Of a stretch of DNA of 19,835 nt, positions 1 to 19,723 are shown piece after piece (positions within the stretch are counted from its first letter, which is position 1; each line of letters starts with the position of its first letter). Origin of the DNA: a virus (lineage: Duplodnaviria; Heunggongvirae; Uroviricota; Caudoviricetes); IMG/VR virus record IMGVR_UViG_2713897055_000003; one strand, 5' to 3'. Made by a program: the position numbers and the translations under genes. A model generated the notes under the pieces. That model saw only the letters and a program-made list of their open reading frames with translations, had not been told where the DNA came from and searched no databases.

Positions 1-2192
<2,192 letters not shown>

Positions 2193-2212
<20 letters not shown>

Positions 2213-3512
2213 TCTCCCGCATATTGCCAGCATGGCTTTTAATGAGCCGCTGATGCTTGAACCCGCCTATGCGCGGGTTTTCTTTTGTGCGCTTGCAGGC
2301 CAGCTTGGGATCAGCCGCCTGACGGATGCGGTGTCCGGCGACAGCCTGACTGCCCAGGAGGCACTCGCGACGCTGGCATTATCCGGTGATGATGACGGAC
2401 CACGACAGGCCCGCAGTTATCAGGTCATGAACGGCATCGCCGTGCTGCCGGTGTCCGGCACGCTGGTCAGCCGGACGCGGGCGCTGCAGCCGTACTCGGG
2501 GATGACCGGTTACAACGGCATTATCGCCCGTCTGCAACAGGCTGCCAGCGATCCGATGGTGGACGGCATTCTGCTCGATATGGACACGCCCGGCGGGATG
2601 GTGGCGGGGGCATTTGACTGCGCTGACATCATCGCCCGTGTGCGTGACATAAAACCGGTATGGGCGCTTGCCAACGACATGAACTGCAGTGCAGGTCAGT
2701 TGCTTGCCAGTGCCGCCTCCCGGCGTCTGGTCACGCAGACCGCCCGGACAGGCTCCATCGGCGTCATGATGGCTCACAGTAATTACGGTGCTGCGCTGGA
2801 GAAACAGGGTGTGGAAATCACGCTGATTTACAGCGGCAGCCATAAGGTGGATGGCAACCCCTACAGCCATCTTCCGGATGACGTCCGGGAGACACTGCAG
2901 TCCCGGATGGACGCAACCCGCCAGATGTTTGCGCAGAAGGTGTCGGCATATACCGGCCTGTCCGTGCAGGCTGTGCTGGATACCGAGGCTGCAGTGTACA
3001 GCGGTCAGGAGGCCATTGATGCCGGACTGGCTGATGAACTTGTTAACAGCACCGATGCGATCACCGTCATGCGTGATGCACTGGATGCACGTAAATCCCG
3101 TCTCTCAGGAGGGCGAATGACCAAAGAGACTCAATCAACAACTGTTTCAGCCACTGCTTCGCAGGCTGACGTTACTGACGTGGTGCCAGCGACGGAGGGC
3201 GAAAACGCCAGCGCGGCGCAGCCGGACGTGAACGCGCAGATCACCGCAGCGGTTGCGGCAGAAAACAGCCGCATTATGGGGATCCTCAACTGTGAGGAGG
3301 CTCACGGACGCGAAGAACAGGCACGCGTGCTGGCAGAAACCCCCGGTATGACCGTGGAAACGGCCCGCCGCATTCTGGCCGCAGCACCACAGAGTGCACA
3401 GGCGCGCAGTGACACTGCGCTGGATCGTCTGATGCAGGGGGCACCGGCACCGCTGGCTGCAGGTAACCCGGCATCTGATGCCGTTAACGATTTGCTGAAC
3501 ACACCAGTGTAA
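2193..3512 (+). CDS. C: Head maturation protease / scaffold gpC (S49, ClpP/SppA-like peptidase family), GTG start
   Basis: GTG at 2193 preceded by strong RBS gaggaggagaag; product begins VTAELRNLPHIASMAFNEPLMLEPAYARVFF..., recognised as lambda gpC (439 aa). The six-frame ORF begins further upstream at 2058, but that part overlaps B and matches no known protein. Confidence 0.9.
2907..3512 (+). CDS. Nu3: Capsid scaffolding protein Nu3, in-frame internal start within C
   Basis: ATG at 2907 in the C frame (MDATRQMFAQKVSAYTGLSVQAVLDTEAAVYS...), sharing the C stop at 3510-3512; matches the lambda C/Nu3 nested arrangement. Confidence 0.8.
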   Translation: MDATRQMFAQKVSAYTGLSVQAVLDTEAAVYSGQEAIDAGLADELVNSTDAITVMRDALDARKSRLSGGRMTKETQSTTVSATASQADVTDVVPATEGENASAAQPDVNAQITAAVAAENSRIMGILNCEEAHGREEQARVLAETPGMTVETARRILAAAPQSAQARSDTALDRLMQGAPAPLAAGNPASDAVNDLLNTPV

Positions 3513-3521
3513 GGGATGTTT

Positions 3522-3854
3522 ATGACGAGCAAAGAAACCTTTACCCATTACCAGCCGCAGGGCAACAGTGACCCGGCTCATACCGCAACCGCGCCCGGCG
3601 GATTGAGTGCGAAAGCGCCTGCAATGACCCCGCTGATGCTGGACACCTCCAGCCGTAAGCTGGTTGCGTGGGATGGCACCACCGACGGTGCTGCCGTTGG
3701 CATTCTTGCGGTTGCTGCTGACCAGACCAGCACCACGCTGACGTTCTACAAGTCCGGCACGTTCCGTTATGAGGATGTGCTCTGGCCGGAGGCTGCCAGC
3801 GACGAGACGAAAAAACGGACCGCGTTTGCCGGAACGGCAATCAGCATCGTTTAA
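3522..3854 (+). CDS. D: Head decoration protein gpD
   Basis: 110-aa product [110 protein letters not shown], recognised as lambda gpD. Confidence 0.95.
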
Positions 3855-3875
3855 CTTTACCCTTCATCACTAAAG

Positions 3876-3896
3876 GCCGCCTGTGCGGCTTTTTTT
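3876..3896 (+). terminator. Intrinsic-terminator-like hairpin between D and E (GC stem gccgc/gcggc, 4-nt loop, T7 run)
   Basis: Sequence aggccgcctgtgcggcttttttt read directly; 5-bp GC stem followed by 7 T residues, immediately before the E start. Confidence 0.5.
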
Positions 3897-3909
3897 ACGG
3901 GATTTTTTT

Positions 3910-4935
3910 ATGTCGATGTACACAACCGCCCAACTGCTGGCGGCAAATGAGCAGAAATTTAAGTTTGATCCGCTGTTTCTGCGTCTCTTTTTCCGTGAGA
4001 GCTATCCCTTCACCACGGAGAAAGTCTATCTCTCACAAATTCCGGGACTGGTAAACATGGCGCTGTACGTTTCGCCGATTGTTTCCGGTGAGGTTATCCG
4101 TTCCCGTGGCGGCTCCACCTCTGAATTTACGCCGGGATATGTCAAGCCGAAGCATGAAGTGAATCCGCAGATGACCCTGCGTCGCCTGCCGGATGAAGAT
4201 CCGCAGAATCTGGCGGACCCGGCTTACCGCCGCCGTCGCATCATCATGCAGAACATGCGTGACGAAGAGCTGGCTATTGCTCAGGTCGAAGAGATGCAGG
4301 CAGTTTCTGCCGTGCTTAAGGGCAAATACACCATGACCGGTGAAGCCTTCGATCCGGTTGAGGTGGATATGGGCCGCAGTGAGGAGAATAACATCACGCA
4401 GTCCGGCGGCACGGAGTGGAGCAAGCGTGACAAGTCCACGTATGACCCGACCGACGATATCGAAGCCTACGCGCTGAACGCCAGCGGTGTGGTGAATATC
4501 ATCGTGTTCGATCCGAAAGGCTGGGCGCTGTTCCGTTCCTTCAAAGCCGTCAAGGAGAAGCTGGATACCCGTCGTGGCTCTAATTCCGAGCTGGAGACAG
4601 CGGTGAAAGACCTGGGTAAAGCGGTGTCCTATAAGGGGATGTATGGCGATGTGGCCATCGTCGTGTATTCCGGACAGTACGTGGAAAACGGCGTCAAAAA
4701 GAACTTCCTGCCGGACAACACGATGGTGCTGGGGAACACTCAGGCACGCGGTCTGCGCACCTATGGCTGCATTCAGGATGCGGACGCACAGCGCGAAGGC
4801 ATTAACGCCTCTGCCCGTTACCCGAAAAACTGGGTGACCACCGGCGATCCGGCGCGTGAGTTCACCATGATTCAGTCAGCACCGCTGATGCTGCTGGCTG
4901 ACCCTGATGAGTTCGTGTCCGTACAACTGGCGTAA
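3910..4935 (+). CDS. E: Major capsid protein gpE
   Basis: 341-aa product starting MSMYTTAQLLAANEQKFKFDPLFLRLFF..., recognised as lambda gpE; the six-frame ORF starts 9 codons upstream at 3883, inside the hairpin, so ATG 3910 is preferred. Confidence 0.95.
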   Translation: MSMYTTAQLLAANEQKFKFDPLFLRLFFRESYPFTTEKVYLSQIPGLVNMALYVSPIVSGEVIRSRGGSTSEFTPGYVKPKHEVNPQMTLRRLPDEDPQNLADPAYRRRRIIMQNMRDEELAIAQVEEMQAVSAVLKGKYTMTGEAFDPVEVDMGRSEENNITQSGGTEWSKRDKSTYDPTDDIEAYALNASGVVNIIVFDPKGWALFRSFKAVKEKLDTRRGSNSELETAVKDLGKAVSYKGMYGDVAIVVYSGQYVENGVKKNFLPDNTMVLGNTQARGLRTYGCIQDADAQREGINASARYPKNWVTTGDPAREFTMIQSAPLMLLADPDEFVSVQLA

Positions 4936-4976
4936 TCATGGCCCTTCGGGGCCATTGTTTCTCTGTGGAGGAGTCC

Positions 4977-5375
4977 ATGACGAAAGATGAACTGATTGCC
5001 CGTCTCCGCTCGCTGGGTGAACAACTGAACCGTGATGTCAGCCTGACGGGGACGAAAGAAGAACTGGCGCTCCGTGTGGCAGAGCTGGAAGAGGAGCTTG
5101 ATGACACGGATGAAACTGCCGGTCAGGACACCCCTCTCAGCCGGGAAAATGTGCTGACCGGGCATGAAAATGAGGTGGTATCAGCGCAGCCGGATACCGT
5201 GATTCAGGATACGGCTGAACTGGTCACGGTCGTGGCACTGGTGAAGCTGCATACTGATGCACTTCACGCCACGCGGGATGAACCTGTGGCATTTGTGCTG
5301 CCGGGAACGGCGTTTCGTGTCTCTGCCGGTGTGGCAGCCGAAATGACAGAGCGCGGCCTGGCCAGAATGCAATAA
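4977..5375 (+). CDS. FI: DNA packaging / head assembly protein gpFI
   Basis: 132-aa product MTKDELIARLRSLGEQLNRDVSLTGTKEELALRVAELEEELDD..., recognised as lambda gpFI; the internal ATG at 4977 is preferred over the ORF start at 4938. Confidence 0.9.
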   Translation: MTKDELIARLRSLGEQLNRDVSLTGTKEELALRVAELEEELDDTDETAGQDTPLSRENVLTGHENEVVSAQPDTVIQDTAELVTVVALVKLHTDALHATRDEPVAFVLPGTAFRVSAGVAAEMTERGLARMQ

Positions 5376-5386
5376 CGGGAGGCGCT

Positions 5387-5740
5387 GTGGCTGATTTCGA
5401 TAACCTGTTCGATGCTGCCATTGCCCGCGCCGATGAAACGATACGCGGGTACATGGGAACGTCAGCCACCATTACATCCGGTGAGCAGTCAGGTGCGGTG
5501 ATACGTGGTGTTTTTGATGACCCTGAAAATATCAGCTATGCCGGACAGGGCGTGCGCGTTGAAGGCTCCAGCCCGTCCCTGTTTGTCCGGACTGATGAGG
5601 TGCGGCAGCTGCGGCGTGGAGACACGCTGACCATCGGTGAGGAAAATTTCTGGGTAGATCGGGTTTCGCCGGATGATGGCGGAAGTTGTCATCTCTGGCT
5701 TGGACGGGGCGTACCGCCTGCCGTTAACCGTCGCCGCTGA
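5387..5740 (+). CDS. FII: Head-tail connector protein gpFII
   Basis: 117-aa product MADFDNLFDAAIARADETIRGYMGTSATITSGEQSGAVIRGVFDDPENISYAGQGVRVEG..., recognised as lambda gpFII. Confidence 0.95.
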   Translation: MADFDNLFDAAIARADETIRGYMGTSATITSGEQSGAVIRGVFDDPENISYAGQGVRVEGSSPSLFVRTDEVRQLRRGDTLTIGEENFWVDRVSPDDGGSCHLWLGRGVPPAVNRRR

Positions 5741-5751
5741 AAGGGGGATGT

Positions 5752-6330
5752 ATGGCCATAAAAGGTCTTGAGCAGGCCGTTGAAAACCTCAGCCGTATCA
5801 GCAAAACGGCGGTGCCTGGTGCCGCCGCAATGGCCATTAACCGCGTTGCTTCATCCGCGATATCGCAGTCGGCGTCACAGGTTGCCCGTGAGACAAAGGT
5901 ACGCCGGAAACTGGTAAAGGAAAGGGCCAGGCTGAAAAGGGCCACGGTCAAAAATCCGCAGGCCAGAATCAAAGTTAACCGGGGGGATTTGCCCGTAATC
6001 AAGCTGGGTAATGCGCGGGTTGTCCTTTCGCGCCGCAGGCGTCGTAAAAAGGGGCAGCGTTCATCCCTGAAAGGTGGCGGCAGCGTGCTTGTGGTGGGTA
6101 ACCGTCGTATTCCCGGCGCGTTTATTCAGCAACTGAAAAATGGCCGGTGGCATGTCATGCAGCGTGTGGCCGGGAAAAACCGTTACCCCATTGATGTGGT
6201 GAAAATCCCGATGGCGGTGCCGCTGACCACGGCGTTTAAACAAAATATTGAGCGGATACGGCGTGAACGTCTTCCGAAAGAGCTGGGCTATGCGCTGCAG
6301 CATCAACTGAGGATGGTAATAAAGCGATGA
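5752..6330 (+). CDS. Z: Tail completion protein gpZ
   Basis: 192-aa ORF in canonical position between FII and U; basic C-terminal region; stop overlaps the U start (ATGA at 6327-6330). Confidence 0.9.
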   Translation: MAIKGLEQAVENLSRISKTAVPGAAAMAINRVASSAISQSASQVARETKVRRKLVKERARLKRATVKNPQARIKVNRGDLPVIKLGNARVVLSRRRRRKKGQRSSLKGGGSVLVVGNRRIPGAFIQQLKNGRWHVMQRVAGKNRYPIDVVKIPMAVPLTTAFKQNIERIRRERLPKELGYALQHQLRMVIKR

Positions 6331-6725
6331 AACATACTGAACTCCGTGCAGCCGTACTGGATGCACTGGAGAAGCATGACACCGGGGCGACGTTTTTTTT
6401 TGATGGTCGCCCCGCTGTTTTTGATGAGGCGGATTTTCCGGCAGTTGCCGTTTATCTCACCGGCGCTGAATACACGGGCGAAGAGCTGGACAGCGATACC
6501 TGGCAGGCGGAGCTGCATATCGAAGTTTTCCTGCCTGCTCAGGTGCCGGATTCAGAGCTGGATGCGTGGATGGAGTCCCGGATTTATCCGGTGATGAGCG
6601 ATATCCCGGCACTGTCAGATTTGATCACCAGTATGGTGGCCAGCGGCTATGACTACCGGCGCGACGATGATGCGGGCCTGTGGAGTTCAGCCGATCTGAC
6701 TTATGTCATTACCTATGAAATGTGA
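6327..6725 (+). CDS. U: Tail tube terminator protein gpU
   Basis: 132-aa [71 protein letters not shown]..., recognised as lambda gpU; contains a T9 homopolymer at 6393-6401. Confidence 0.9.
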
Positions 6726-6732
6726 GGACGCT

Positions 6733-7473
6733 ATGCCTGTACCAAATCCTACAATGCCGGTGAAAGGTGCCGGGACCACCCTGTGGGTTTATAAGGGGAG
6801 CGGTGACCCTTATGCGAATCCGCTTTCAGACGTTGACTGGTCGCGTCTGGCAAAAGTTAAAGACCTGACGCCCGGCGAACTGACCGCTGAGTCCTATGAC
6901 GACAGCTATCTCGATGATGAAGATGCAGACTGGACTGCGACCGGGCAGGGGCAGAAATCTGCCGGAGATACCAGCTTCACGCTGGCGTGGATGCCCGGAG
7001 AGCAGGGGCAGCAGGCGCTGCTGGCGTGGTTTAATGAAGGCGATACCCGTGCCTATAAAATCCGCTTCCCGAACGGCACGGTCGATGTGTTCCGTGGCTG
7101 GGTCAGCAGTATCGGTAAGGCGGTGACGGCGAAGGAAGTGATCACCCGCACGGTGAAAGTCACCAATGTGGGACGTCCGTCGATGGCAGAAGATCGCAGC
7201 ACGGTAACAGCGGCAACCGGCATGACCGTGACGCCTGCCAGCACCTCGGTGGTGAAAGGGCAGAGCACCACGCTGACCGTGGCCTTCCAGCCGGAGGGCG
7301 TAACCGACAAGAGCTTTCGTGCGGTGTCTGCGGATAAAACAAAAGCCACCGTGTCGGTCAGTGGTATGACCATCACCGTGAACGGCGTTGCTGCAGGCAA
7401 GGTCAACATTCCGGTTGTATCCGGTAATGGTGAGTTTGCTGCGGTTGCAGAAATTACCGTCACCGCCAGTTAA
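6733..7473 (+). CDS. V: Major tail tube protein gpV with C-terminal Ig-like (Big_2-type) domain
   Basis: 246-aa product [57 protein letters not shown]..., recognised as lambda gpV; ATG 6733 chosen over the ORF start at 6703, which lies inside the U 3' end. Confidence 0.95.
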
Positions 7474-7488
7474 TCCGGAGAGTCAGCG

Positions 7489-7911
7489 ATGTTCCTGAAA
7501 ACCGAATCATTTGAACATAACGGTGTGACCGTCACGCTTTCTGAACTGTCAGCCCTGCAGCGCATTGAGCATCTCGCCCTGATGAAACGGCAGGCAGAAC
7601 AGGCGGAGTCAGACAGCAACCGGAAGTTTACTGTGGAAGACGCCATCAGAACCGGCGCGTTTCTGGTGGCGATGTCCCTGTGGCATAACCATCCGCAGAA
7701 GACGCAGATGCCGTCCATGAATGAAGCCGTTAAACAGATTGAGCAGGAAGTGCTTACCACCTGGCCCACGGAGGCAATTTCTCATGCTGAAAACGTGGTG
7801 TACCGGCTGTCTGGTATGTATGAGTTTGTGGTGAATAATGCCCCTGAACAGACAGAGGACGCCGGGCCCGCAGAGCCTGTTTCTGCGGGAAAGTGTTCGA
7901 CGGTGAGCTGA
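7489..7911 (+). CDS. G: Tail assembly chaperone gpG
   Basis: 140-aa ORF MFLKTESFEHNGVTVTLSELSALQRIEHLALMKRQAEQAESD..., recognised as lambda gpG; RBS ggagag upstream. Confidence 0.95.
   Translation: MFLKTESFEHNGVTVTLSELSALQRIEHLALMKRQAEQAESDSNRKFTVEDAIRTGAFLVAMSLWHNHPQKTQMPSMNEAVKQIEQEVLTTWPTEAISHAENVVYRLSGMYEFVVNNAPEQTEDAGPAEPVSAGKCSTVS
7887..7893 (+). promoter_or_regulatory. Programmed -1 ribosomal frameshift slippery heptamer G GGA AAG (G to G-T fusion)
   Basis: Heptamer gggaaag at 7887-7893 is in the correct X XXY YYZ register relative to the G frame (codons GGA 7888-7890, AAG 7891-7893); the -1 frame is open from 7893 to 8327. This matches the known lambda G/T frameshift site. Confidence 0.85.
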
Positions 7912-8327
7912 GTTTTGCCCTGAAACTGGCGCGTGAGATGGGGCGACCCGACTGGCGTGCCATGCTTGCCGGGATGTCATCCACGGAGTATGCCGACTGG
8001 CACCGCTTTTACAGTACCCATTATTTTCATGATGTTCTGCTGGATATGCACTTTTCCGGGCTGACGTACACCGTGCTCAGCCTGTTTTTCAGCGATCCGG
8101 ATATGCATCCGCTGGATTTCAGTCTGCTGAACCGGCGCGAGGCTGACGAAGAGCCTGAAGATGATGTGCTGATGCAGAAAGCGGCAGGGCTTGCCGGAGG
8201 TGTCCGCTTTGGCCCGGACGGGAATGAAGTTATCCCCGCTTCCCCGGATGTGGCGGACATGACGGAGGATGACGTAATGCTGATGACAGTATCAGAAGGG
8301 ATCGCAGGAGGAGTCCGGTATGGCTGA
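7893..8327 (+). CDS. T: Tail assembly protein T portion, expected to be expressed only as a G-T fusion via -1 frameshift
   Basis: -1 frame ORF relative to G, open 7893..8327, encoding ...FDGELSFALKLAREMGRPDWRAMLAGMSSTEYADWHRFYSTHYFHDVLLDMHFSGLTYTV...; its end overlaps the H start. Confidence 0.85.
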   Translation: MFDGELSFALKLAREMGRPDWRAMLAGMSSTEYADWHRFYSTHYFHDVLLDMHFSGLTYTVLSLFFSDPDMHPLDFSLLNRREADEEPEDDVLMQKAAGLAGGVRFGPDGNEVIPASPDVADMTEDDVMLMTVSEGIAGGVRYG

Positions 8328-10881
8328 ACCGGTAGGCGATCTGGTCGTTGATTTGAGTCTGGATGCGGCCAGATTTGACGAGCAGATGGCCAGAGTCAGG
8401 CGTCATTTTTCCGGTACGGAAAGTGATGCGAAAAAAACAGCGGCAGTCGTTGAACAGTCGCTGAGCCGACAGGCGCTGGCTGCACAGAAAGCGGGGATTT
8501 CCGTCGGGCAGTATAAAGCCGCCATGCGTATGCTGCCTGCACAGTTCACCGACGTGGCCACGCAGCTTGCAGGCGGGCAAAGTCCGTGGCTGATCCTGCT
8601 GCAACAGGGGGGGCAGGTGAAGGACTCCTTCGGCGGGATGATCCCCATGTTCAGGGGGCTTGCCGGTGCGATCACCCTGCCGATGGTGGGGGCCACCTCG
8701 CTGGCGGTGGCGACCGGTGCGCTGGCGTATGCCTGGTATCAGGGCAACTCAACCCTGTCCGATTTCAACAAAACGCTGGTCCTTTCCGGCAATCAGGCGG
8801 GACTGACGGCAGATCGTATGCTGGTCCTGTCCAGAGCCGGGCAGGCGGCAGGGCTGACGTTTAACCAGACCAGCGAGTCACTCAGCGCACTGGTTAAGGC
8901 GGGGGTAAGCGGTGAGGCTCAGATTGCGTCCATCAGCCAGAGTGTGGCGCGTTTCTCCTCTGCATCCGGCGTGGAGGTGGACAAGGTCGCTGAAGCCTTC
9001 GGGAAGCTGACCACAGACCCGACGTCGGGGCTGACGGCGATGGCACGCCAGTTCCATAACGTGACGACGGAGCAGATTGCGTATGTTGCTCAGTTGCAGC
9101 GTTCCGGCGATGAAGCCGGGGCATTGCAGGCGGCGAACGAGGCCGCAACGAAAGGGTTTGATGACCAGACCCGCCGCCTGAAAGAGAACATGGGCACGCT
9201 GGAGACCTGGGCAGACAGGACTGCGCGGGCATTCAAATCCATGTGGGATGCGGTGCTGGATATTGGTCGTCCTGATACCGCGCAGGAGATGCTGATTAAG
9301 GCAGAGGCTGCGTTTAAGAAAGCAGACGACATCTGGAATCTGCGCAAGGATGATTATTTTGTTAACGATGAAGCGCGGGCGCGTTACTGGGATGATCGTG
9401 AAAAGGCCCGTCTTGCGCTTGAAGCCGCCCGAAAGAAGGCTGAGCAGCAGACTCAACAGGACAAAAATGCGCAGCAGCAGAGCGATACCGAAGCGTCACG
9501 GCTGAAATATACCGAAGAGGCGCAGAAGGCTTACGAACGGCTGCAGACGCCGCTGGAGAAATATACCGCCCGTCAGGAAGAACTGAACAAGGCACTGAAA
9601 GACGGGAAAATCCTGCAGGCGGATTACAACACGCTGATGGCGGCGGCGAAAAAGGATTATGAAGCGACGCTGAAAAAGCCGAAACAGTCCGGCGTGAAGG
9701 TGTCTGCGGGCGATCGTCAGGAAGACAGTGCTCATGCTGCCCTGCTGACGCTTCAGGCAGAACTCCGGACGCTGGAGAAGCATGCCGGAGCAAATGAGAA
9801 AATCAGCCAGCAGCGCCGGGATTTGTGGAAGGCGGAGAGTCAGTTCGCGGTACTGGAGGAGGCGGCGCAACGTCGCCAGCTGTCTGCACAGGAGAAATCC
9901 CTGCTGGCGCATAAAGATGAGACGCTGGAGTACAAACGCCAGCTGGCTGCACTTGGCGACAAGGTTACGTATCAGGAGCGCCTGAACGCGCTGGCGCAGC
10001 AGGCGGATAAATTCGCACAGCAGCAACGGGCAAAACGGGCCGCCATTGATGCGAAAAGCCGGGGGCTGACTGACCGGCAGGCAGAACGGGAAGCCACGGA
10101 ACAGCGCCTGAAGGAACAGTATGGCGATAATCCGCTGGCGCTGAATAACGTCATGTCAGAGCAGAAAAAGACCTGGGCGGCTGAAGACCAGCTTCGCGGG
10201 AACTGGATGGCAGGCCTGAAGTCCGGCTGGAGTGAGTGGGAAGAGAGCGCCACGGACAGTATGTCGCAGGTAAAAAGTGCAGCCACGCAGACCTTTGATG
10301 GTATTGCACAGAATATGGCGGCGATGCTGACCGGCAGTGAGCAGAACTGGCGCAGCTTCACCCGTTCCGTGCTGTCCATGATGACAGAAATTCTGCTTAA
10401 GCAGGCAATGGTGGGGATTGTCGGGAGTATCGGCAGCGCCATTGGCGGGGCTGTTGGTGGCGGCGCATCCGCGTCAGGCGGTACAGCCATTCAGGCCGCT
10501 GCGGCGAAATTCCATTTTGCAACCGGAGGATTTACGGGAACCGGCGGCAAATATGAGCCAGCGGGGATTGTTCACCGTGGTGAGTTTGTCTTCACGAAGG
10601 AGGCAACCAGCCGGATTGGCGTGGGGAATCTTTACCGGCTGATGCGCGGCTATGCCACCGGCGGTTATGTCGGTACACCGGGCAGCATGGCAGACAGCCG
10701 GTCGCAGGCGTCCGGGACGTTTGAGCAGAATAACCATGTGGTGATTAACAACGACGGCACGAACGGGCAGATAGGTCCGGCTGCTCTGAAGGCGGTGTAT
10801 GACATGGCCCGCAAGGGTGCCCGTGATGAAATTCAGACACAGATGCGTGATGGTGGCCTGTTCTCCGGAGGTGGACGATGA
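8320..10881 (+). CDS. H: Tail tape measure protein gpH
   Basis: 853-aa ORF (same length as lambda gpH) with long charged, helix-prone central region and Gly-rich segment near the C-terminus; position between T and M. Confidence 0.95.
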   Translation: MAEPVGDLVVDLSLDAARFDEQMARVRRHFSGTESDAKKTAAVVEQSLSRQALAAQKAGISVGQYKAAMRMLPAQFTDVATQLAGGQSPWLILLQQGGQVKDSFGGMIPMFRGLAGAITLPMVGATSLAVATGALAYAWYQGNSTLSDFNKTLVLSGNQAGLTADRMLVLSRAGQAAGLTFNQTSESLSALVKAGVSGEAQIASISQSVARFSSASGVEVDKVAEAFGKLTTDPTSGLTAMARQFHNVTTEQIAYVAQLQRSGDEAGALQAANEAATKGFDDQTRRLKENMGTLETWADRTARAFKSMWDAVLDIGRPDTAQEMLIKAEAAFKKADDIWNLRKDDYFVNDEARARYWDDREKARLALEAARKKAEQQTQQDKNAQQQSDTEASRLKYTEEAQKAYERLQTPLEKYTARQEELNKALKDGKILQADYNTLMAAAKKDYEATLKKPKQSGVKVSAGDRQEDSAHAALLTLQAELRTLEKHAGANEKISQQRRDLWKAESQFAVLEEAAQRRQLSAQEKSLLAHKDETLEYKRQLAALGDKVTYQERLNALAQQADKFAQQQRAKRAAIDAKSRGLTDRQAEREATEQRLKEQYGDNPLALNNVMSEQKKTWAAEDQLRGNWMAGLKSGWSEWEESATDSMSQVKSAATQTFDGIAQNMAAMLTGSEQNWRSFTRSVLSMMTEILLKQAMVGIVGSIGSAIGGAVGGGASASGGTAIQAAAAKFHFATGGFTGTGGKYEPAGIVHRGEFVFTKEATSRIGVGNLYRLMRGYATGGYVGTPGSMADSRSQASGTFEQNNHVVINNDGTNGQIGPAALKAVYDMARKGARDEIQTQMRDGGLFSGGGR

Positions 10882-11207
10882 AGACCTTCCGCTGGAAAGT
10901 GAAACCCGGTATGGATGTGGCTTCGGTCCCTTCTGTAAGAAAGGTGCGCTTTGGTGATGGTTATTCTCAGCGAGCGCCTGCCGGGCTGAATGCCAACCTG
11001 AAAACGTACAGCGTGACGCTTTCTGTCCCCCGTGAGGAGGCCACGGTACTGGAGTCGTTTCTGGAAGAGCACGGGGGCTGGAAATCCTTTCTGTGGACGC
11101 CGCCTTATGAGTGGCGGCAGATAAAGGTGACCTGCGCAAAATGGTCGTCGCGGGTCAGTATGCTGCGTGTTGAGTTCAGCGCAGAGTTTGAACAGGTGGT
11201 GAACTGA
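10878..11207 (+). CDS. M: Tail tip protein gpM
   Basis: 109-aa ORF; start overlaps the H stop (ATGA), stop overlaps the L start by 1 nt; canonical lambda order. Confidence 0.9.
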   Translation: MKTFRWKVKPGMDVASVPSVRKVRFGDGYSQRAPAGLNANLKTYSVTLSVPREEATVLESFLEEHGGWKSFLWTPPYEWRQIKVTCAKWSSRVSMLRVEFSAEFEQVVN

Positions 11208-11905
11208 TGCAGGATATCCGGCAGGAAACACTGAATGAATGCACCCGTGCGGAGCAGTCGGCCAGCGTGGTGCTCTGGGAAATCGACCTGACAGAGGTCG
11301 GTGGAGAACGTTATTTTTTCTGTAATGAGCAGAACGAAAAAGGTGAGCCGGTCACCTGGCAGGGGCGACAGTATCAGCCGTATCCCATTCAGGGGAGCGG
11401 TTTTGAACTGAATGGCAAAGGCACCAGTACGCGCCCCACGCTGACGGTTTCTAACCTGTACGGTATGGTCACCGGGATGGCGGAAGATATGCAGAGTCTG
11501 GTCGGCGGAACGGTGGTCCGGCGTAAGGTTTACGCCCGTTTTCTGGATGCGGTGAACTTCGTCAACGGAAACAGTTACGCCGATCCGGAGCAGGAGGTGA
11601 TCAGCCGCTGGCGCATTGAGCAGTGCAGCGAACTGAGCGCGGTGAGTGCCTCCTTTGTACTGTCCACGCCGACGGAAACGGATGGCGCTGTTTTTCCGGG
11701 ACGTATCATGCTGGCCAACACCTGCACCTGGACCTATCGCGGTGACGAGTGCGGTTATAGCGGTCCGGCTGTCGCGGATGAATATGACCAGCCAACGTCC
11801 GATATCACGAAGGATAAATGCAGCAAATGCCTGAGCGGTTGTAAGTTCCGCAATAACGTCGGCAACTTTGGCGGCTTCCTTTCCATTAACAAACTTTCGC
11901 AGTAA
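11207..11905 (+). CDS. L: Tail tip protein gpL
   Basis: 232-aa ORF in canonical position; product contains a C-terminal Cys cluster (CTWTYRGDECGY...CSKCLSGC). Confidence 0.9.
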   Translation: MQDIRQETLNECTRAEQSASVVLWEIDLTEVGGERYFFCNEQNEKGEPVTWQGRQYQPYPIQGSGFELNGKGTSTRPTLTVSNLYGMVTGMAEDMQSLVGGTVVRRKVYARFLDAVNFVNGNSYADPEQEVISRWRIEQCSELSAVSASFVLSTPTETDGAVFPGRIMLANTCTWTYRGDECGYSGPAVADEYDQPTSDITKDKCSKCLSGCKFRNNVGNFGGFLSINKLSQ

Positions 11906-11910
11906 ATCCC

Positions 11911-12654
11911 ATGACACAGACAGAATCAGCGATTCTGGCGCACGCCCGGCGATGTGCGCCAGCGGAGTCGTGCGGCTTCGTGGTAAGCACGCCGGAGGGG
12001 GAAAGATATTTCCCCTGCGTGAATATCTCCGGTGAGCCGGAGGCGTATTTCCGTATGTCGCCGGAAGACTGGCTGCAGGCAGAAATGCAGGGTGAGATTG
12101 TGGCGCTGGTCCACAGCCACCCCGGTGGTCTGCCCTGGCTGAGTGAGGCCGACCGGCGGCTGCAGGTGCAGAGTGATTTGCCGTGGTGGCTGGTCTGCCG
12201 GGGGACGATTCATAAGTTCCGCTGTGTGCCGCATCTCACCGGGCGGCGCTTTGAGCACGGTGTGACGGACTGTTACACACTGTTCCGGGATGCTTATCAT
12301 CTGGCGGGGATTGAGATGCCGGACTTTCATCGTGAGGATGACTGGTGGCGTAACGGCCAGAATCTCTATCTGGATAATCTGGAGGCGACGGGGCTGTATC
12401 AGGTGCCGTTGTCAGCGGCACAGCCGGGCGATGTGCTGCTGTGCTGTTTTGGTTCATCGGTGCCGAATCACGCCGCAATTTACTGCGGCGACGGCGAGCT
12501 GCTGCACCATATTCCTGAACAACTGAGTAAACGAGAGAGGTATACCGACAAATGGCAGCGACGCACACACTCCCTCTGGCGTCACCGGGCATGGCGCGCA
12601 TCTGCCTTTACGGGGATTTACAACGATTTGGCCGCCGCATCGACCTTCGTGTGA
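11911..12654 (+). CDS. K: Tail tip assembly protein gpK; JAB/MPN (JAMM) metalloprotease domain plus NlpC/P60 cysteine peptidase domain
   Basis: 247-aa ORF; exact JAMM motif H-x-H-x7-S-x2-D at HSHPGGLPWLSEAD (nt 12112-12153); the C-terminal half carries a conserved Cys (GVTDCYTLF) and His residues consistent with NlpC/P60. The last 199 aa, from the Met at 12055, match the lambda gpK sequence as I recall it; the 48-codon N-terminal extension is in frame. Confidence 0.85.
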   Translation: MTQTESAILAHARRCAPAESCGFVVSTPEGERYFPCVNISGEPEAYFRMSPEDWLQAEMQGEIVALVHSHPGGLPWLSEADRRLQVQSDLPWWLVCRGTIHKFRCVPHLTGRRFEHGVTDCYTLFRDAYHLAGIEMPDFHREDDWWRNGQNLYLDNLEATGLYQVPLSAAQPGDVLLCCFGSSVPNHAAIYCGDGELLHHIPEQLSKRERYTDKWQRRTHSLWRHRAWRASAFTGIYNDLAAASTFV

Positions 12655-13223
12655 AAACTGGTGCTGAAGCCATTCGGGCGCTGGCCACACAGCTCCCGGC
12701 GTTTCGTCAGAAACTGAGCGACGGCTGGTATCAGGTACGGATTGCCGGGCGGGACGTCAGCACGTCAGGGTTAACGGCGCAGTTACATGAGACTCTGCCT
12801 GACGGCGCTGTGATTCATATTGTTCCCAGAGTCGCCGGAGCCAAGTCAGGGGGCGTATTCCAGATTGTCCTGGGAGCTGCCGCCATTGCCGGATCATTCT
12901 TTACCGCCGGAGCCACCCTTGCAGCATGGGGGGCAGCCATTGGGGCCGGTGGTATGACCGGCATCCTGTTTTCTCTCGGTGCCAGTATGGTACTTGGTGG
13001 TGTGGCGCAGATGCTGGCACCGAAAGCCAGAACTCCCCGTACACAGACAACGGATAACGGTAAGCAGAACACCTATTTCTCCTCACTGGATAACATGGTT
13101 GCCCAGGGCAATGTTCTGCCTGTTCTGTACGGTGAAATGCGCGTGGGGTCGCGGGTGGCTTCTCAGGAGATCAGCACGGCAGACGAGGGGGACGGTGGTC
13201 AGGTTGTGGTGATTGGTCGCTGA
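12552..13223 (+). CDS. I: Tail tip assembly protein gpI; N-terminal ubiquitin-like (beta-grasp) domain ending in Gly-Gly, hydrophobic Gly/Ala-rich C-terminal region
   Basis: 223-aa ORF MAATHTLPLASPGMARICLYGDLQRFGRRIDLRVKTGAEAIRALATQLPAFRQKL...VPRVAGAKSGG (GG codons at 12849-12854), recognised as lambda gpI; overlaps the K 3' end by 103 nt in another frame. Confidence 0.9.
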   Translation: MAATHTLPLASPGMARICLYGDLQRFGRRIDLRVKTGAEAIRALATQLPAFRQKLSDGWYQVRIAGRDVSTSGLTAQLHETLPDGAVIHIVPRVAGAKSGGVFQIVLGAAAIAGSFFTAGATLAAWGAAIGAGGMTGILFSLGASMVLGGVAQMLAPKARTPRTQTTDNGKQNTYFSSLDNMVAQGNVLPVLYGEMRVGSRVASQEISTADEGDGGQVVVIGR

Positions 13224-13241
13224 TGCAAAATGTTTTATGTG

Positions 13242-13261
13242 AAACCGCCTGCGGGCGGTTT
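13242..13261 (+). terminator. Short stem-loop between I and J (aaaccgcc tgcg ggcggttt), weak terminator-like element
   Basis: Inverted repeat read directly in the 60-nt I-J spacer; the downstream T run is interrupted, so function is uncertain. Confidence 0.3.
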
Positions 13262-13283
13262 TGTCGTTTATGGAGCGTGACGA

Positions 13284-16200
13284 ATGGGTAAAGGCAGCAG
13301 TAAGGGGCATACCCCGCGCGAAGCGAAGGACAACCTGAAGTCCACGCAGCTGCTGAGTGTGATCGATGCCATCAGCGAAGGGCCGGTTGAAGGTCCGGTG
13401 GATGGATTAAAAAGCGTGCTGCTGAACAGTACGCCGGTGCTGGACAGTGAGGGGAATACCAATATATCCGGCGTCACGGTGGTGTTCCGGGCCGGTGAGC
13501 AGGAGCAGACACCGCCGGAGGGATTTGAATCCTCCGGCTCCGAGACGGTGCTCGGTACAGAAGTGAAATATGACACGCCGATCACCCGGACCATCACGTC
13601 GGCAAACATTGACCGTCTGCGTTTTACTTTCGGCGTGCAGGCACTGGTGGAAACCACCTCAAAGGGGGACAGGAATCCATCGGAAGTCCGCCTGCTGGTT
13701 CAGATACAACGTAACGGTGGCTGGGTGACGGAAAAAGACATCACCATTAAGGGTAAAACCACTTCACAGTATCTGGCCTCGGTGGTGGTGGATAACCTGC
13801 CGCCGCGCCCGTTCAGTATCCGGATGCGCAGGATGACGCCGGACAGCACCACAGACCAGCTGCAGAACAAAACGCTCTGGTCGTCATACACCGAAATTAT
13901 CGATGTGAAACAGTGCTACCCGAACACGGCACTGTTCGGCGTGCAGGTGGACTCGGAGCAGTTCGGCAGCCAGCAGGTGAGCCGTAATTATCATCTGCGC
14001 GGGCGTATTCTGCAGGTGCCGTCAAATTATAACCCGCAGACGCGGCAATACAGCGGTATCTGGGACGGAACGTTTAAACCGGCATACAGCAACAACATGG
14101 CCTGGTGTATGTGGGATATGCTGACCCATCCGCGCTACGGCATGGGGAAACGTCTTGGTGCAGCGGATGTAGATAAATGGGCGCTGTATGTCATCGGCCA
14201 GTACTGCGACCAGTCGGTGCCGGACGGCTTTGGCGGCACGGAGCCGCGCATCACCTGTAATGCGTACCTGACCACACAGCGCAAGGCGTGGGATGTGCTC
14301 AGTGATTTCTGCTCGGCGATGCGCTGTATGCCGGTATGGAACGGGCAGACGCTGACGTTCGTGCAGGACCGACCATCAGATAAGGTGTGGACCTATAACC
14401 GCAGTAATGTGGTGATGCCGGATGATGGCGCGCCGTTCCGCTACAGCTTCAGCGCCCTGAAGGACCGCCATAATGCCGTTGAGGTGAACTGGATTGACCC
14501 GAACAACGGCTGGGAGACGGCGACAGAGCTTGTTGAAGATACGCAGGCCATTGCCCGTTACGGTCGTAACGTCACGAAGATGGATGCCTTTGGCTGTACC
14601 AGCCGGGGGCAGGCGCACCGCGCCGGGCTGTGGCTGATTAAAACGGAACTGCTGGAAACGCAGACCGTGGACTTCAGCGTGGGTGCGGAAGGGCTTCGCC
14701 ATGTACCGGGGGATGTCATTGAAATCTGCGATGATGACTATGCGGGTATCAGCATCGGCGGGCGCGTGCTGGCGGTGAACAGCCAGACCCGGATGCTGAC
14801 GCTCGACCGTGAAATCACGCTGCCATCCTCCGGTACCACGCTGATAAGCCTGGTTGACGGAAGTGGCAATCCGGTCAGCGTGGAGGTCCAGTCCGTCACC
14901 GACGGCGTGAAGGTAAAAGTGAGCCGTGTTCCTGACGGCGTTGCCGGATACAGCGTGTGGGGGCTGAAGCTGCCGACGCTGCGCCAGCGCCTGTTCCGCT
15001 GCGTGAGTATCCGTGAGAACGATGACGGCACGTATGCCATCACCGCCGTGCAGCATGTACCGGAAAAAGAGGCCATCGTGGATAACGGGGCGCACTTTGA
15101 CGGCGACCAGAGCGGCACGGTGAATGGTGTCACGCCGCCAGCAGTGCAGCATCTGACCGCCGAAGTCACTGCAGACAGCGGGGAATATCAGGTGCTGGCG
15201 CGATGGGACACGCCGAAGGTGGTGAAGGGCGTGAGCTTCCTGCTTCGCCTGACCGTGGCAGCGGATGACGGCAGTGAGCGGCTGGTCAGCACGGCCCGGA
15301 CGGCGGAAACCACTTACCGCTTCACACAACTGGCTCTGGGGAACTACAGGCTGACAGTCCGGGCAGTAAATGCGTGGGGGCAGCAGGGCGATCCGGCGTC
15401 GGTATCGTTCCGGATTGCCGCACCGGCAGCGCCGTCGCGGATTGAGCTGACGCCGGGCTATTTTCAGATAACCGCCACGCCGCATCTTGCGGTTTATGAT
15501 CCGACGGTACAGTTTGAGTTCTGGTTCTCGGAAAAGCGGATTGCGGATATCAAGCAGGTTGAAACCACAGCACGCTATCTTGGCACGGCGCTGTACTGGA
15601 TAGCCGCCAGTATCAATATCAGGCCGGGCCATAATTATTATTTTTACGTTCGCAGTGTGAACACCGTTGGCAAATCGGCATTCGTGGAGGCTGTTGGTCA
15701 GCCGAGTGATGACGCATCCGGCTATCTGGATTTTTTCAAAGGCGAGATAGGGAAAACCCATCTGGCTCAGGAGCTGTGGACGCAGATTGATAACGGTCAG
15801 CTTGCGCCTGACCTGGCTGAAATCAGGACATCCATTACGGATGTCAGCAATGAAATCACACAGACCGTCAATAAGAAACTGGAAGACCAGAGTGCAGCGA
15901 TCCAGCAGATACAGAAGGTTCAGGTTGATACAAATAATAATCTGAACAGCATGTGGGCTGTGAAGCTGCAGCAGATGCAGGACGGACGCCTTTATATCGC
16001 GGGTATCGGTGCCGGTATTGAGAACACCCCCGACGGCATGCAGAGTCAGGTGCTGCTGGCGGCAGACAGGATTGCGATGATTAATCCTGCAAATGGCAAC
16101 ACAAAACCGATGTTTGTTGGTCAGGGTGATCAGATATTCATGAATGAAGTGTTCCTGAAATATCTGACGGCTCCCACCATTACCAGCGGCGGTAATCCTC

Positions 16201-16763
16201 CTGCATTTTCCCTGACACCGGACGGAAAGCTGACCGCTAAAAATGCAGATATCAGTGGCAGTGTGAATGCGAACTCCGGGACGCTCAACAACGTTACGAT
16301 AAATGAGAACTGTCAGATTAAAGGGAAACTGTCAGCCAACCAGATTGAAGGCGATATTGTCAAAACAGTGGGTAAGGCTTTCCCGCGGGACTCCCGGGCA
16401 CCGGAGCGGTGGCCATCAGGGACCATTACCGTCAGGATTTATGACGATCAGCCTTTTGACAGGCAAATTGTTATTCCGGCGGTGGCATTCTGCGGCGCTA
16501 AACATGAGCGGGAGAATAACGATATTTATTCGTCATGCCGCCTGATAGTGAAGAAAAATGGTGCTGAAATTTATAACCGTACCGCGCTGGATAATACGCT
16601 GATTTACAGTGGTGTTATTGATATGCCAGCTGGTCACGGCCACATGACGCTGGAGTTTTCGGTGTCAGCATGGCTGGTAAATGACTGGTATCCCACAGCA
16701 AGTATCAGCGATTTGCTGGTTGTGGTGATGAAGAAAGCCACCGCAGGCATCAGTATCAGCTGA
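13284..16763 (+). CDS. J: Central tail fibre / host specificity protein gpJ
   Basis: 1159-aa ORF starting [58 protein letters not shown]..., recognised as lambda gpJ. The total length differs from my recollection of lambda J (1132 aa), and the C-terminal ~150 aa (...[19 protein letters not shown]) do not match my recollection of the lambda receptor-binding end. Confidence 0.9.
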
Positions 16764-16782
16764 ATTTTATAACCCATATACG

Positions 16783-16806
16783 GGCGCCAGAAATGGCGCC
16801 TTTTTT
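16783..16806 (+). terminator. Rho-independent terminator downstream of J (palindromic ggcgcc stem, 6-nt loop, T6 run)
   Basis: ggcgcc agaaat ggcgcc tttttt read directly, 20 nt after the J stop. Confidence 0.7.
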
Positions 16807-16830
16807 ATTGCAGAAAAGCGAGAGGTAATT

Positions 16831-17430
16831 ATGCGTAAAGTTTGTGCAGCCATTTTGTCCGCAGCCATCTGTCTGGCCGTATCCGGTGCGCCTGCATGGG
16901 CGTCTGAGCAGCAGGCCACACTGAGCGCAGGGTATCTTCATGCCCGTACGAACGCTCCCGGCAGCGATAATCTGAACGGGATTAACGTGAAATACCGTTA
17001 TGAGTTTACGGACACGCTGGGGCTGATTACGTCATTCAGTTATGCCAACGCTGAAGATGAGCAAAAAACGCATTACAGCGATACCCGCTGGCATGAAGAT
17101 TCCGTGCGTAACCGCTGGTTCAGCGTGATGGCGGGGCCGTCTGTGCGCGTGAATGAATGGTTCAGCGCGTATGCGATGGCGGGTGTGGCTTACAGCCGTG
17201 TGTCGACTTTCTCCGGGGATTATCTGCAGGTGACCGACAATACGGGGAAAACGCACGATGTGCTGATCGGAAGTGATGACGGTCGCCACAGCAACACGTC
17301 TCTGGCGTGGGGGGCTGGCGTGCAGTTTAACCCGACCGAATCCGTGGCCGTTGATGTCGCTTATGAAGGTTCCGGCAGTGGCGACTGGCGCACTGACGGT
17401 TTCATCGTGGGTGTCGGTTATAAATTCTGA
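16831..17430 (+). CDS. lom: Lom-like outer membrane beta-barrel protein (Ail/Lom/PagC family), with signal peptide
   Basis: 199-aa ORF with N-terminal signal peptide [24 protein letters not shown] and C-terminus ...[28 protein letters not shown], which matches the lambda Lom C-terminus as I recall it and ends in the aromatic residue typical of outer-membrane barrels; the N-terminal two-thirds is divergent from lambda Lom. RBS gagagg upstream. Confidence 0.85.
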
Positions 17431-17456
17431 TTAGCCAGGTAACACAGTGTTATGAC

Positions 17457-17483
17457 AGCCCGCCGGTTCAGGCGGGCTTTTTT
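17457..17483 (+). terminator. Rho-independent terminator downstream of lom (8-bp GC-rich stem agcccgcc/ggcgggct, T6 run)
   Basis: agcccgcc ggttca ggcgggc tttttt read directly, 27 nt after the lom stop. Confidence 0.75.
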
Positions 17484-17494
17484 GTGGGGTGAAT

Positions 17495-19723
17495 ATGGCA
17501 GTAAAGATTTCAGGTGTACTGAAAGACGGCACAGGAAAACCGGTACAGAACTGCACAATCCAGCTGAAAGCAAAACGTAACAGTACCACGGTGGTGGTGA
17601 ACACGCTGGCCTCAGAAAATCCGGATGAAGCCGGGCGTTACAGCATGGACGTTGAGTACGGTCAGTACAGCGTTATTCTGTTGGTGGAAGGATTCCCGCC
17701 GTCACATGCCGGGACCATCACCGTGTATGAAGATTCCCGACCCGGTACGCTGAATGATTTTCTCGGTGCCATGACGGAGGATGATGCCCGTCCTGAGGCA
17801 CTGCGCCGTTTTGAACTGATGGTGGAAGAGGTGGCGCGTAACGCGTCCGCGGTGGCACAGAACACGGCAGCCGCGAAGAAGTCAGCCAGCGATGCCAGCA
17901 CATCAGCCCGTGAGGCGGCAACCCATGCGACTGATGCTGCAGGCTCAGCACGCGCAGCCAGCACGTCAGCCGGACAGGCTGCTTCGTCGGCTCAGTCAGC
18001 GTCTTCCAGCGCAGGAACGGCATCAACAAAGGCCACTGAAGCATTAAAAAGTGCTGCCGCTGCAGAGTCCTCAAAAAGCGCGGCAGCTACCAGTGCCAGT
18101 GCCGCGAAAACGTCAGAAACGAATGCTGCAGCGTCACAACAATCAGCAGCCACTTCTGCATCCACCGCGACTACGAAAGCGTCAGAAGCTGCCACCTCAG
18201 CCCGGGATGCGTCGGCTTCAAAAGAGGCGGCAAAATCATCAGAAACGAACGCATCCTCGAGCGCCAGTAGCGCAGCTTCCTCGGCAACGGCGGCAGCAAA
18301 TTCCGCGAAGGCGGCAAAAACGTCCGAGACGAACGCCAGGTCTTCTGAGACGGCAGCGGGACAGAGCGCCTCAGCTGCGGCAGGCTCAAAAACAGCGGCT
18401 GCGTCGTCTGCCAGTGCCGCGTCAACAAGTGCCGGGCAGGCCTCAGCCAGTGCCATCGCCGCCGGAAAATCGGCAGAAAGCGCCGCATCATCCGCTTCAA
18501 CAGCCACAACGAAGGCTTGCGAAGCCACTGAACAGGCCAGCGCAGCAGCGAGGTCAGCTTCCGCAGCGAAGACATCCGAAACGAACGCGAAAGCGTCGGA
18601 AACCAGCGCAGAATCCTCAAAAACGGCTGCCGCATCGTCCGCCAGTTCGGCGGCGTCATCGGCCTCATCGGCGTCTGCTTCAAAAGATGAGGCGACCAGA
18701 CAAGCGTCAGCAGCGAAGGGCAGCGCCACGACGGCATCCACGAAGGCAACAGAGGCTGCTGGCAGTGCGACGGCGGCAGCACAGAGCAAGAGTACGGCAG
18801 AATCCGCAGCAACGCGCGCCGAGACAGCAGCAAAACGGGCAGAGGATATTGCATCCGCTGTGGCGCTTGAGGATGCGAGCACGACGAAAAAGGGGATAGT
18901 ACAGCTCAGTAGTGCGACTAACAGCACTTCCGAGTCACTGGCGGCAACACCAAAAGCCGTTAAGGCCGCGTATGACCTGGCTAACGGGAAATACACCGCA
19001 CAGGATGCAACGACAGCACAGAAAGGGATAATCCAGCTAAGCAGCGCGACCAACAGCACGTCTGAAACGCTTGCCGCGACACCAAAGGCAGTAAAAACAG
19101 CCTATGACAATGCTGAGAAACGTCTGCAGAAAGATCAGAACGGTGCGGATATCCCTGGCAAAGACACCTTTACGAAAAATATTGGTGCCTGCCGTGCCTT
19201 TGGTGGGTCAGTAAGCACAATAACAGGAAACTGGACGACTGCACAGTTTATCGAGTGGCTGGATTCTCAGGGAGCATTTAACCATCCCTACTGGATGTGC
19301 AAGGGTTCCTGGTCTTATGGCAATAATAAAATCATTACTGATACTGACTGCGGTAATATTCATCTCGCCGGAGCTGTCATTGAAGTAATGGGGATAAAGT
19401 CAGCGATGACGATCCGCATTACCACACCGACCACCTCCACTGGTGGTGGAACAACTAACGCCCAGTTTACCTATATTAATCACGGAACAGATTATTCACC
19501 TGGCTGGCGAAGGGACTATAACTCCAGAAATAAGCCAACGGCATCAGAGATCGGGGCGTTACCGTCAGGTGGAACAGCAGTATCATCAGTTAATCTGTCT
19601 TCAAAAGGTCGGGTAACCGCGCTGACAGACAATACGCAGGGGGCAACAGGTCTTGAGTTATACGAGGTGTATAACAACGGATATCCAACAGCGTATGGAA
19701 ATGAAGGCAGGCGATTGCTTTAA
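17495..19723 (+). CDS. stf: Side tail fibre protein Stf-like
   Basis: Product begins [62 protein letters not shown]..., recognised as the lambda Stf N-terminus; long Ala/Ser/Thr-rich shaft, tandem 'KGI(V/I)[11 protein letters not shown](S/T)LAATPKAVK' repeats and a distinct C-terminal domain. ATG 17495 is preferred over the GTG at 17489 given by the ORF track. Confidence 0.85.
17840..18860 (+). repeat. Low-complexity Ala/Ser/Thr-rich repeat region encoding the Stf shaft (recurring AAKTSETNA / SSETNA units)
   Basis: Recurrent gcg/gca/tcx/acg codon blocks and repeated motifs such as acgtcagaaacgaatgc and tccgagacgaacgcc; this same composition generates large spurious ORFs in other frames and on the minus strand. 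Confidence 0.7.

Follow-up and report, generated by a model that had tools for sequence, protein, structure and literature searches.

A lambda-like lom gene between two conserved, predicted intrinsic terminators, probably exchanged together with the receptor-binding end of J

The lom gene considered here lies on a 19,835-nucleotide stretch of tailed-phage DNA (the window, by which we mean the whole stretch that was analysed). It is very probably a lambda-like lom in its canonical slot, bounded by genuine terminators and expressed with the late operon as a unit without a promoter, and it would have been exchanged as one block with the end of J. The presence of lom between J and stf is in itself already known, a textbook trait of prophages of the lambda type whose annotation can be found in thousands of E. 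coli genomes: of 5426 complete E. coli genomes, 4890 contain a lom match, the median copy number being two and the total roughly 16,000, and DNA identical to the window lom occurs in at least seven complete chromosomes of E. coli, with strains 13E0767 and 2014C-3075 among the carriers, the RefSeq name of the identical gene being 'Ail/Lom family outer membrane beta-barrel protein'. What can be added is how this allele is delimited, how it is likely to be transcribed and with what it travels.

The window is a late region of the lambda type in which B, H, J, lom and stf follow one another in order. The portal gene B occupies 611-2212 and the tape measure gene H 8320-10881. On the plus strand are J (13284-16763, stop codon at 16761-16763), whose 1159-residue tail-tip attachment protein matches seven Pfam J-domain families, lom (16831-17430) and the side tail fibre gene stf (17495-19723), which encodes Pfam phage_tail_N and Phage_fiber_2 domains and whose start aligns with that of lambda orf-401. 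On gene order this is lambda's own layout and not a new arrangement, as lambda, too, has lom between J and stf, a hairpin with a T-run after J, and a short lom leader with a GAGAGG ribosome-binding site. Positions 1-15780 of the window are 98.7% identical to lambda 2228-18002. Beyond 15780 the similarity is patchy until approximately 17303-17365, and at 17350-17365, around codons 174-178 of lom, sliding identity to lambda climbs from 0.4-0.7 to 0.87-1.0. Past this point identity to lambda stays at 87% or above across the 3' UTR and the terminator and into the beginning of stf, and the DNA for the last ~27 Lom residues, for the 3' UTR and for the stf start is near-identical in lambda and the window. 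The replaced block (15781-17350, plus strand) therefore appears to end at a recombination junction inside lom, and comprises three parts: the C-terminal third of J with its receptor-binding domain, the spacer between J and lom, and some 85% of the lom gene.

The protein encoded by the J gene reflects the same mosaic. Overall it is 83% identical to lambda J, its first ~820 residues being near-identical, and the Ig_GpJ_C receptor-binding domain was located by Pfam at residues 1029-1159. The last 140 residues are 44% identical to those of lambda, and so constitute a receptor-binding domain of another type than lambda's, and ~62% identical to an OmpC-binding domain of the A8 type. The most likely account of this pattern, read from the alignment to lambda, is that one and the same recombination block brought in the lom allele and the receptor-binding end of J, which would mean that this end of J and most of lom move together.

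The two hairpins that border lom were described in the initial annotation as strong intrinsic terminators at 16783-16806 and 17457-17483, and both are in place. The first, t_J (16782-16806, plus strand), has eight pairs and a four-nucleotide loop, with the stem GGGCGCCA-GAAA-TGGCGCCT at 16782-16801 and T6 at 16801-16806. The second, t_lom (17457-17483, plus strand), also has eight pairs, here with a six-nucleotide loop, the stem AGCCCGCC-GGTTCA-GGCGGGCT lying at 17457-17478 and T6 at 17478-17483. Their folding energies are -15.7 kcal/mol (z -3.0) and -19.8 kcal/mol (z -2.7), respectively, and they rank first and second among 29 terminator-like sites in the window. Under a strict rule of at least seven pairs, at least five of them G-C, with T6 directly after the stem, the whole window contains three sites, all on the plus strand, two of which flank lom. 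In 300 dinucleotide shuffles the same rule yielded 0.007 sites per window, and two sites in one window were never reached. The third strict site (3874-3891, plus strand) is located in the spacer between the head genes D and E, also within the late operon. An Rfam search of 16000-18200 found no family above threshold; a Trp_leader match at 17403-17485, which scored 21.7 bits where 41 are required, mirrors terminator shape only and was set aside.

Conservation was assessed in several hundred related loci taken from IMG/VR, using as queries the window Lom, lambda Lom, the stf N-terminus and three J receptor-binding types. Four classes of Lom were found 3' of J: class 0, to which the 199-residue window protein belongs, classes 1 and 3 (207 residues each) and class 2, that of lambda (206 residues). 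In all four, the J-lom spacer is 61-70 nt long and contains a G+C-rich hairpin, then a T-run and then a ribosome-binding site. Across 23 distinct spacers the t_J stem is paired in 97.3% of cells, with compensatory changes in three of its eight pairs (G-C to A-U in seven sequences, C-G to U-A in six and A-U to U-A in two). This covariation score was reached by none of 500 shuffles, and slid controls were 37-60% paired. The T-run of t_J is unchanged across Lom classes 0, 1 and 3. The variants seen in t_lom are single-side and G-U changes only, and wherever stf is the next gene this hairpin lies 3' of lom in classes 0, 1 and 2; a different hairpin takes its place when another gene follows lom. 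In lambda itself, t_lom is a near-identical hairpin with T6, with a loop and stem variant CCGGAACCGGTGGG, whereas the place of t_J is taken by an unrelated and weaker hairpin (-9.7 versus -15.7 kcal/mol in the window). The J-stf junction of HK97, from which lom is absent, has no terminator-like site. Taken together, both hairpins have the pattern of genuine, conserved intrinsic terminators that are predicted to stop ordinary RNA polymerase.

A gene set between terminators in this way might be a moron, and the initial annotation had proposed exactly this, reading lom as an autonomously expressed lysogenic-conversion gene. A moron in the sense of Juhala and Hendrix (as quoted in PMC3594210) can be judged by extra DNA relative to related phages, a terminator of its own, a promoter of its own, a deviant composition and expression from the repressed prophage, and for the window allele the first two were found. 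Six IMG/VR loci from the J0-type search (L430-L435; for example L432:1915-1985) have a natural J-stf junction without lom in which t_J, 'GGCGCC TTTTTT ATT', is joined straight to 'TGTGGAGTGAATATG' of the stf leader, and in HK97, too, J is followed by stf without lom. The breakpoints of the indel are the T-runs of t_J and t_lom, and the unit that comes and goes consists of the 24-nt leader with its ribosome-binding site, lom, the 3' UTR and the t_lom hairpin. By these comparisons lom is a dispensable insertion/deletion unit which carries its own terminator. Upstream of near-identical stf copies we found only loci with lom or with a pseudogenised copy, and no lom-less junction.

Neither a deviant composition nor a promoter was seen. 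The G+C content of lom (56.0%) is close to that of the window (57.0%) and of stf (55.6%), and its GC3 is 61.5% versus 66% for J, H and B. As for a promoter, the distance from the T-run of t_J to the lom ATG is only 24 nt, and there is none within the indel unit. A scan with the sigma-70 consensus found no plus-strand site near lom and none in the 24-nt leader, and no plus-strand candidate near lom stood out from the window background in a PWM scan. The best PWM candidate, at 16542-16570 (CTGATA-17-TGAAAT) in the variable domain of J, scored no better than about eight other plus-strand sites and was not retained. A search of the literature found no mapped lom promoter or transcription start. 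The ribosome-binding site that had been claimed for lom is indeed present: GAGAGGT at 16820-16826 (plus strand), read from the sequence four nucleotides before the ATG at 16831 and invariant across class-0 spacers. The sequence lends no support to the claim of autonomous expression, given the 24-nt gap, the lack of any sigma-70 site that stands out and an indel unit without a promoter. The moron label is thus half earned for this allele: as an indel that ends in a terminator it qualifies, but it has neither a visible promoter nor a deviant G+C content (56% versus 57%).

Two minor features of the J-lom spacer may be mentioned here. Between the J stop codon and the hairpin lies a conserved motif, TTTTATAACCC (16765-16775, plus strand), that is kept with small variants in Lom classes 0, 1 and 3 and at the lom-less junction. 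Read on the minus strand it contains the -10-like hexamer TAAAAT, part of a putative promoter-like site (TTCTGG-17-TAAAAT, 16792-16764, minus strand) that overlaps both the t_J loop and the motif, has a score that falls in the window's top 0.02% and would point antisense into the 3' end of J.

How, then, might lom be expressed? Late transcription from pR' is rendered terminator-resistant by Q. By extension from lambda biology, Q-antiterminated polymerase would read through both hairpins during lytic growth, and J, lom, stf and tfa would be made from one late transcript. The Q gene and pR' lie outside the window, and we infer the Q step. The spacing of the genes offers a further argument: the stf ATG lies 11 nt past the T-run of t_lom, which leaves no room for a promoter of its own, so stf would depend on the late transcript and both hairpins would have to be read through in lytic growth. 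Without Q, t_J would bar stray J transcription from lom, and t_lom would bar lom transcripts from stf. The lom product would accordingly be made mainly with the late genes and, in the lysogen, only at the low level that escapes or bypasses t_J. This model fits the expression reported for lambda lom, which is low in lysogens and rises strongly late in infection (bioRxiv 10.1101/2025.02.28.640651; PMC7067206; PMC1151598).

The alternative is that lom is a classical moron after all, with its own promoter and terminator, constitutively expressed from the repressed prophage as an adhesion or serum-resistance conversion factor in the manner of Ail, PagC and Rck. It would account for the presence of lom as an indel against otherwise homologous J-stf junctions (L430-L435 and HK97), for the strong terminator 3' of the gene, and for the listing of lambda lom among the few genes expressed in lysogens (PMC7067206; PMC1151598) and the link of that gene to buccal-cell adhesion (PMC3594210; PMC1151598). 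The lom of phi24B, moreover, is reported to be expressed in lysogens independently of induction and has a ~90-nt AT-rich upstream region as well as a downstream terminator. In the window, however, the lom ATG follows the T6 of t_J by only 24 nt, which contain no sigma-70-like site, and nothing upstream stands out; the indel unit lacks a promoter, the composition of the gene is that of its surroundings, and the equivalog cut-offs for Rck and OmpX were not reached (see below). We therefore regard constitutive, moron-type expression as unlikely. Consensus scans could miss weak, non-sigma-70 or activator-dependent promoters, and as the lom genes of both lambda and phi24B have been reported to be expressed in lysogens, a promoter of one of these kinds could exist upstream of t_J or overlapping it. 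Lysogenic-conversion claims for the window allele would need transcript mapping.

It might also be asked whether the hairpins are chiefly RNA-stability or recombination-linker elements that shield the 3' termini left when the late transcript is processed into J and lom segments, or serve as homology patches for module exchange. The module borders do coincide with the hairpins, as the hairpin variant tracks the J type while everything from the T-run onward tracks the Lom class, and deletion of lom fuses the two T-runs. In L010, L032 and related J-lom spacers the loop of t_J is reverse-complemented (AGAAAT to ATTTCT) with the stem unaltered, which suggests inversion or template switching at the palindrome and hence DNA-level events there. 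On the other hand, an 8-bp stem rich in G+C with a perfect T6 immediately behind it is what marks an intrinsic terminator, neither a stability hairpin nor a homology patch would need that T6, and the T-run is invariant in classes 0, 1 and 3. A chiefly structural or recombinational role is thus quite improbable, although it and a terminator role are not exclusive of each other; in what follows we continue to treat both hairpins as terminators within the late operon.

The protein itself can be placed with some assurance. The lom gene (16831-17430, plus strand; stop codon at 17428-17430, followed by a 26-nt 3' UTR up to t_lom) encodes 199 residues which match Pfam PF06316 over the full length of the profile (residues 1-199 on profile positions 1-199 of 199) with 415.5 bits against a cut-off of 23 and an E-value of 4e-125, in agreement with the family assignment that had been suggested for a check by profile search. 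Its translation begins with a Sec-type signal peptide of 24 residues ending in AWA and followed by SEQQ (16831-16902, plus strand), of which residues 2-18 form a helix in the model, and ends in GVGYKF with a terminal aromatic Phe. An AF2 model of moderate confidence (mean pLDDT 68) contains the signal helix and eight strands (28-38, 50-60, 65-81, 87-108, 111-135, 141-166, 172-183 and 186-198), and its top Foldseek matches are Ail (3qrc) and OmpX (1qj9), each with a probability of 1.0. Sequence matches in the PDB are to lambda Lom (9wso chain C, 2.6e-49), Ail (3qra) and OmpX. From profile and model together, the window lom is predicted to encode a secreted, eight-stranded outer-membrane barrel of the Ail/Lom family.

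Yersinia Ail, E. coli OmpX and Salmonella Rck and PagC are likewise eight-stranded barrels of PF06316, with sequence matches at about 5e-19, but the window Lom is only ~24-31% identical to them, is ~45 residues longer and has longer strands beta3-beta6; it is also encoded in a phage late operon, whereas these are chromosomal or plasmid-borne members. The NCBIfam equivalog cut-offs were not reached for Rck (NF011777, 109.6 versus 258) or OmpX (NF006917, 99.1 versus 176). By these scores the window Lom is related to both but is neither one, and a serum-resistance function cannot be transferred to it.

Compared with lambda Lom (206 residues, NP_040601), the window protein is 43% identical overall. 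When the alignment is divided by model topology, the membrane-embedded strands are 65% identical and the extracellular parts 29%, and extracellular loop L1 is eight residues shorter than that of lambda, in line with the divergence of the exposed parts that the initial annotation had noticed. That annotation had also observed that the C-terminal strands resemble those of lambda, and so they do, yet selective retention of the barrel need not be the cause: the identical C-terminal strands follow from the recombination junction at ~17350-17365, which suffices to explain them.

Variation among the relatives of the window Lom is distributed in a similar way. In 130 distinct full-length class-0 proteins it is concentrated in the signal peptide, L1 (residues 36-49) and the tip of L2 (residues 72-82), and the periplasmic turns and membrane strands are kept. 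The variants of L1 and L2 are few and discrete. Several alleles are intragenic mosaics (P0082, P0092, P0097 and P0100), in which a signal peptide of the class-1 type and a long L1 are set on an otherwise class-0 protein. Occasional copies are damaged: an IS transposase is inserted at the lom ribosome-binding site in one locus (L273:1995-2100), another copy is frameshifted (L096:2100-2440), and ~15 further lom ORFs among ~310 loci are short or truncated.

Such damaged copies, together with the existence of a lom-less variant, would be expected if lom were a decaying passenger in many prophages, a gene without a selected function that is kept through its linkage to J and stf. That the copy in the window is intact, that the barrel is preserved across the class-0 proteins with variation concentrated in the signal peptide, L1 and L2, and that database clusters of these proteins have thousands of members (up to ~25,000 sequences for class 0) all argue against it, and we consider a passenger gene very improbable.

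A function for Lom can be proposed from its relatives. As a surface protein, Lom would alter the envelope of cells that are infected or lysogenic. The initial annotation had put forward adhesion or serum resistance, but these roles are borrowed from relatives, and more recent results for lambda Lom suggest that it binds LamB. Overexpressed lambda Lom protects against lambda-vir and not against T7 (bioRxiv 10.1101/2025.02.28.640651), and in PDB entry 9wso lambda Lom is deposited together with the maltoporin LamB construct used for the J-LamB complex. This co-deposition points to a Lom-LamB complex. An 'A8 gpJ' C-terminal fragment is similarly co-deposited with OmpC in 9wcb, and 9wca also matched; a literature search found no paper describing 9wso or 9wcb. 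The best current lead suggested by these observations is that Lom may bind and mask the phage's own porin receptor, the older alternative being adhesion to host cells, for which the evidence is that lambda lysogens adhere to buccal cells, a result available to us as cited in PMC3594210 and PMC1151598.

If this is carried over to the window, Lom would mask the porin used by its own phage, perhaps OmpC and not LamB, would travel with the J domain and would block the adsorption of kin phages to cells that are infected, lysing or lysogenic. OmpC is the candidate because the J domain of the window resembles the OmpC-binding A8 type more than it does the lambda domain. We offer this as a tentative extension, and a somewhat doubtful one, since receptor masking is known at most for lambda Lom, to which the window protein is 29% identical in its exposed parts. 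The association between the two genes is suggestive in places: in the sampling based on J, a J domain of the window type is followed by class-0 Lom only (52 of 52 intact cases), and a lambda-type J never precedes class-0 Lom. A strict one-to-one pairing of Lom class and J type can nevertheless be rejected, as class-0 Lom occurs with J types 0, 1, 2, 5 and 6, and three Lom classes (0, 1 and 3) are found after J0. The pairing is loose and may be simply the linkage disequilibrium expected of neighbouring genes. Were masking true, the divergent loops would be specificity determinants and the block formed by the J end and lom would act as a cassette for host range and exclusion. More generally, if Lom alleles are receptor-specific masks, the lom genes of prophages in pathogenic E. 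coli, which are abundant and vary in their loops, would serve to exclude phages instead of, or besides, acting as virulence factors.

Two other systems are useful for comparison. Cor, a superinfection-exclusion protein of HK022, phi80, N15 and T1, is encoded in the same slot 3' of J and is annotated as a moron. It acts on the phage's own receptor, FhuA. Cor is, however, a small lipoprotein unrelated to the beta-barrel Lom, and receptor blocking is established for Cor whereas for Lom it is suggested. The Lom proteins of the podoviral Stx phages 933W and phi24B belong to the Ail/Lom family, are ~43% identical to the window Lom and are likewise encoded ahead of an intrinsic terminator. In contrast to the window, lom in these phages comes after tail genes other than J, is preceded by ~90 nt of AT-rich DNA and has no terminator ahead of it. 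In phi24B it is followed by the 24B_1 small-RNA region, but this locus represents another downstream context and is absent from the window.

Elsewhere in the window, a 461-codon ORF with an ATG start lies antisense within J (14376-15761, minus strand), and has most likely arisen by chance, the coding DNA being rich in G+C. On the minus strand inside stf, positions 18012-18200 match the Rfam model of isrG, an Hfq-binding sRNA of Salmonella, below threshold (30.8 bits versus a gathering score of 100, E 7.5e-6), a similarity that probably reflects shared tail-fibre DNA rather than an sRNA gene.
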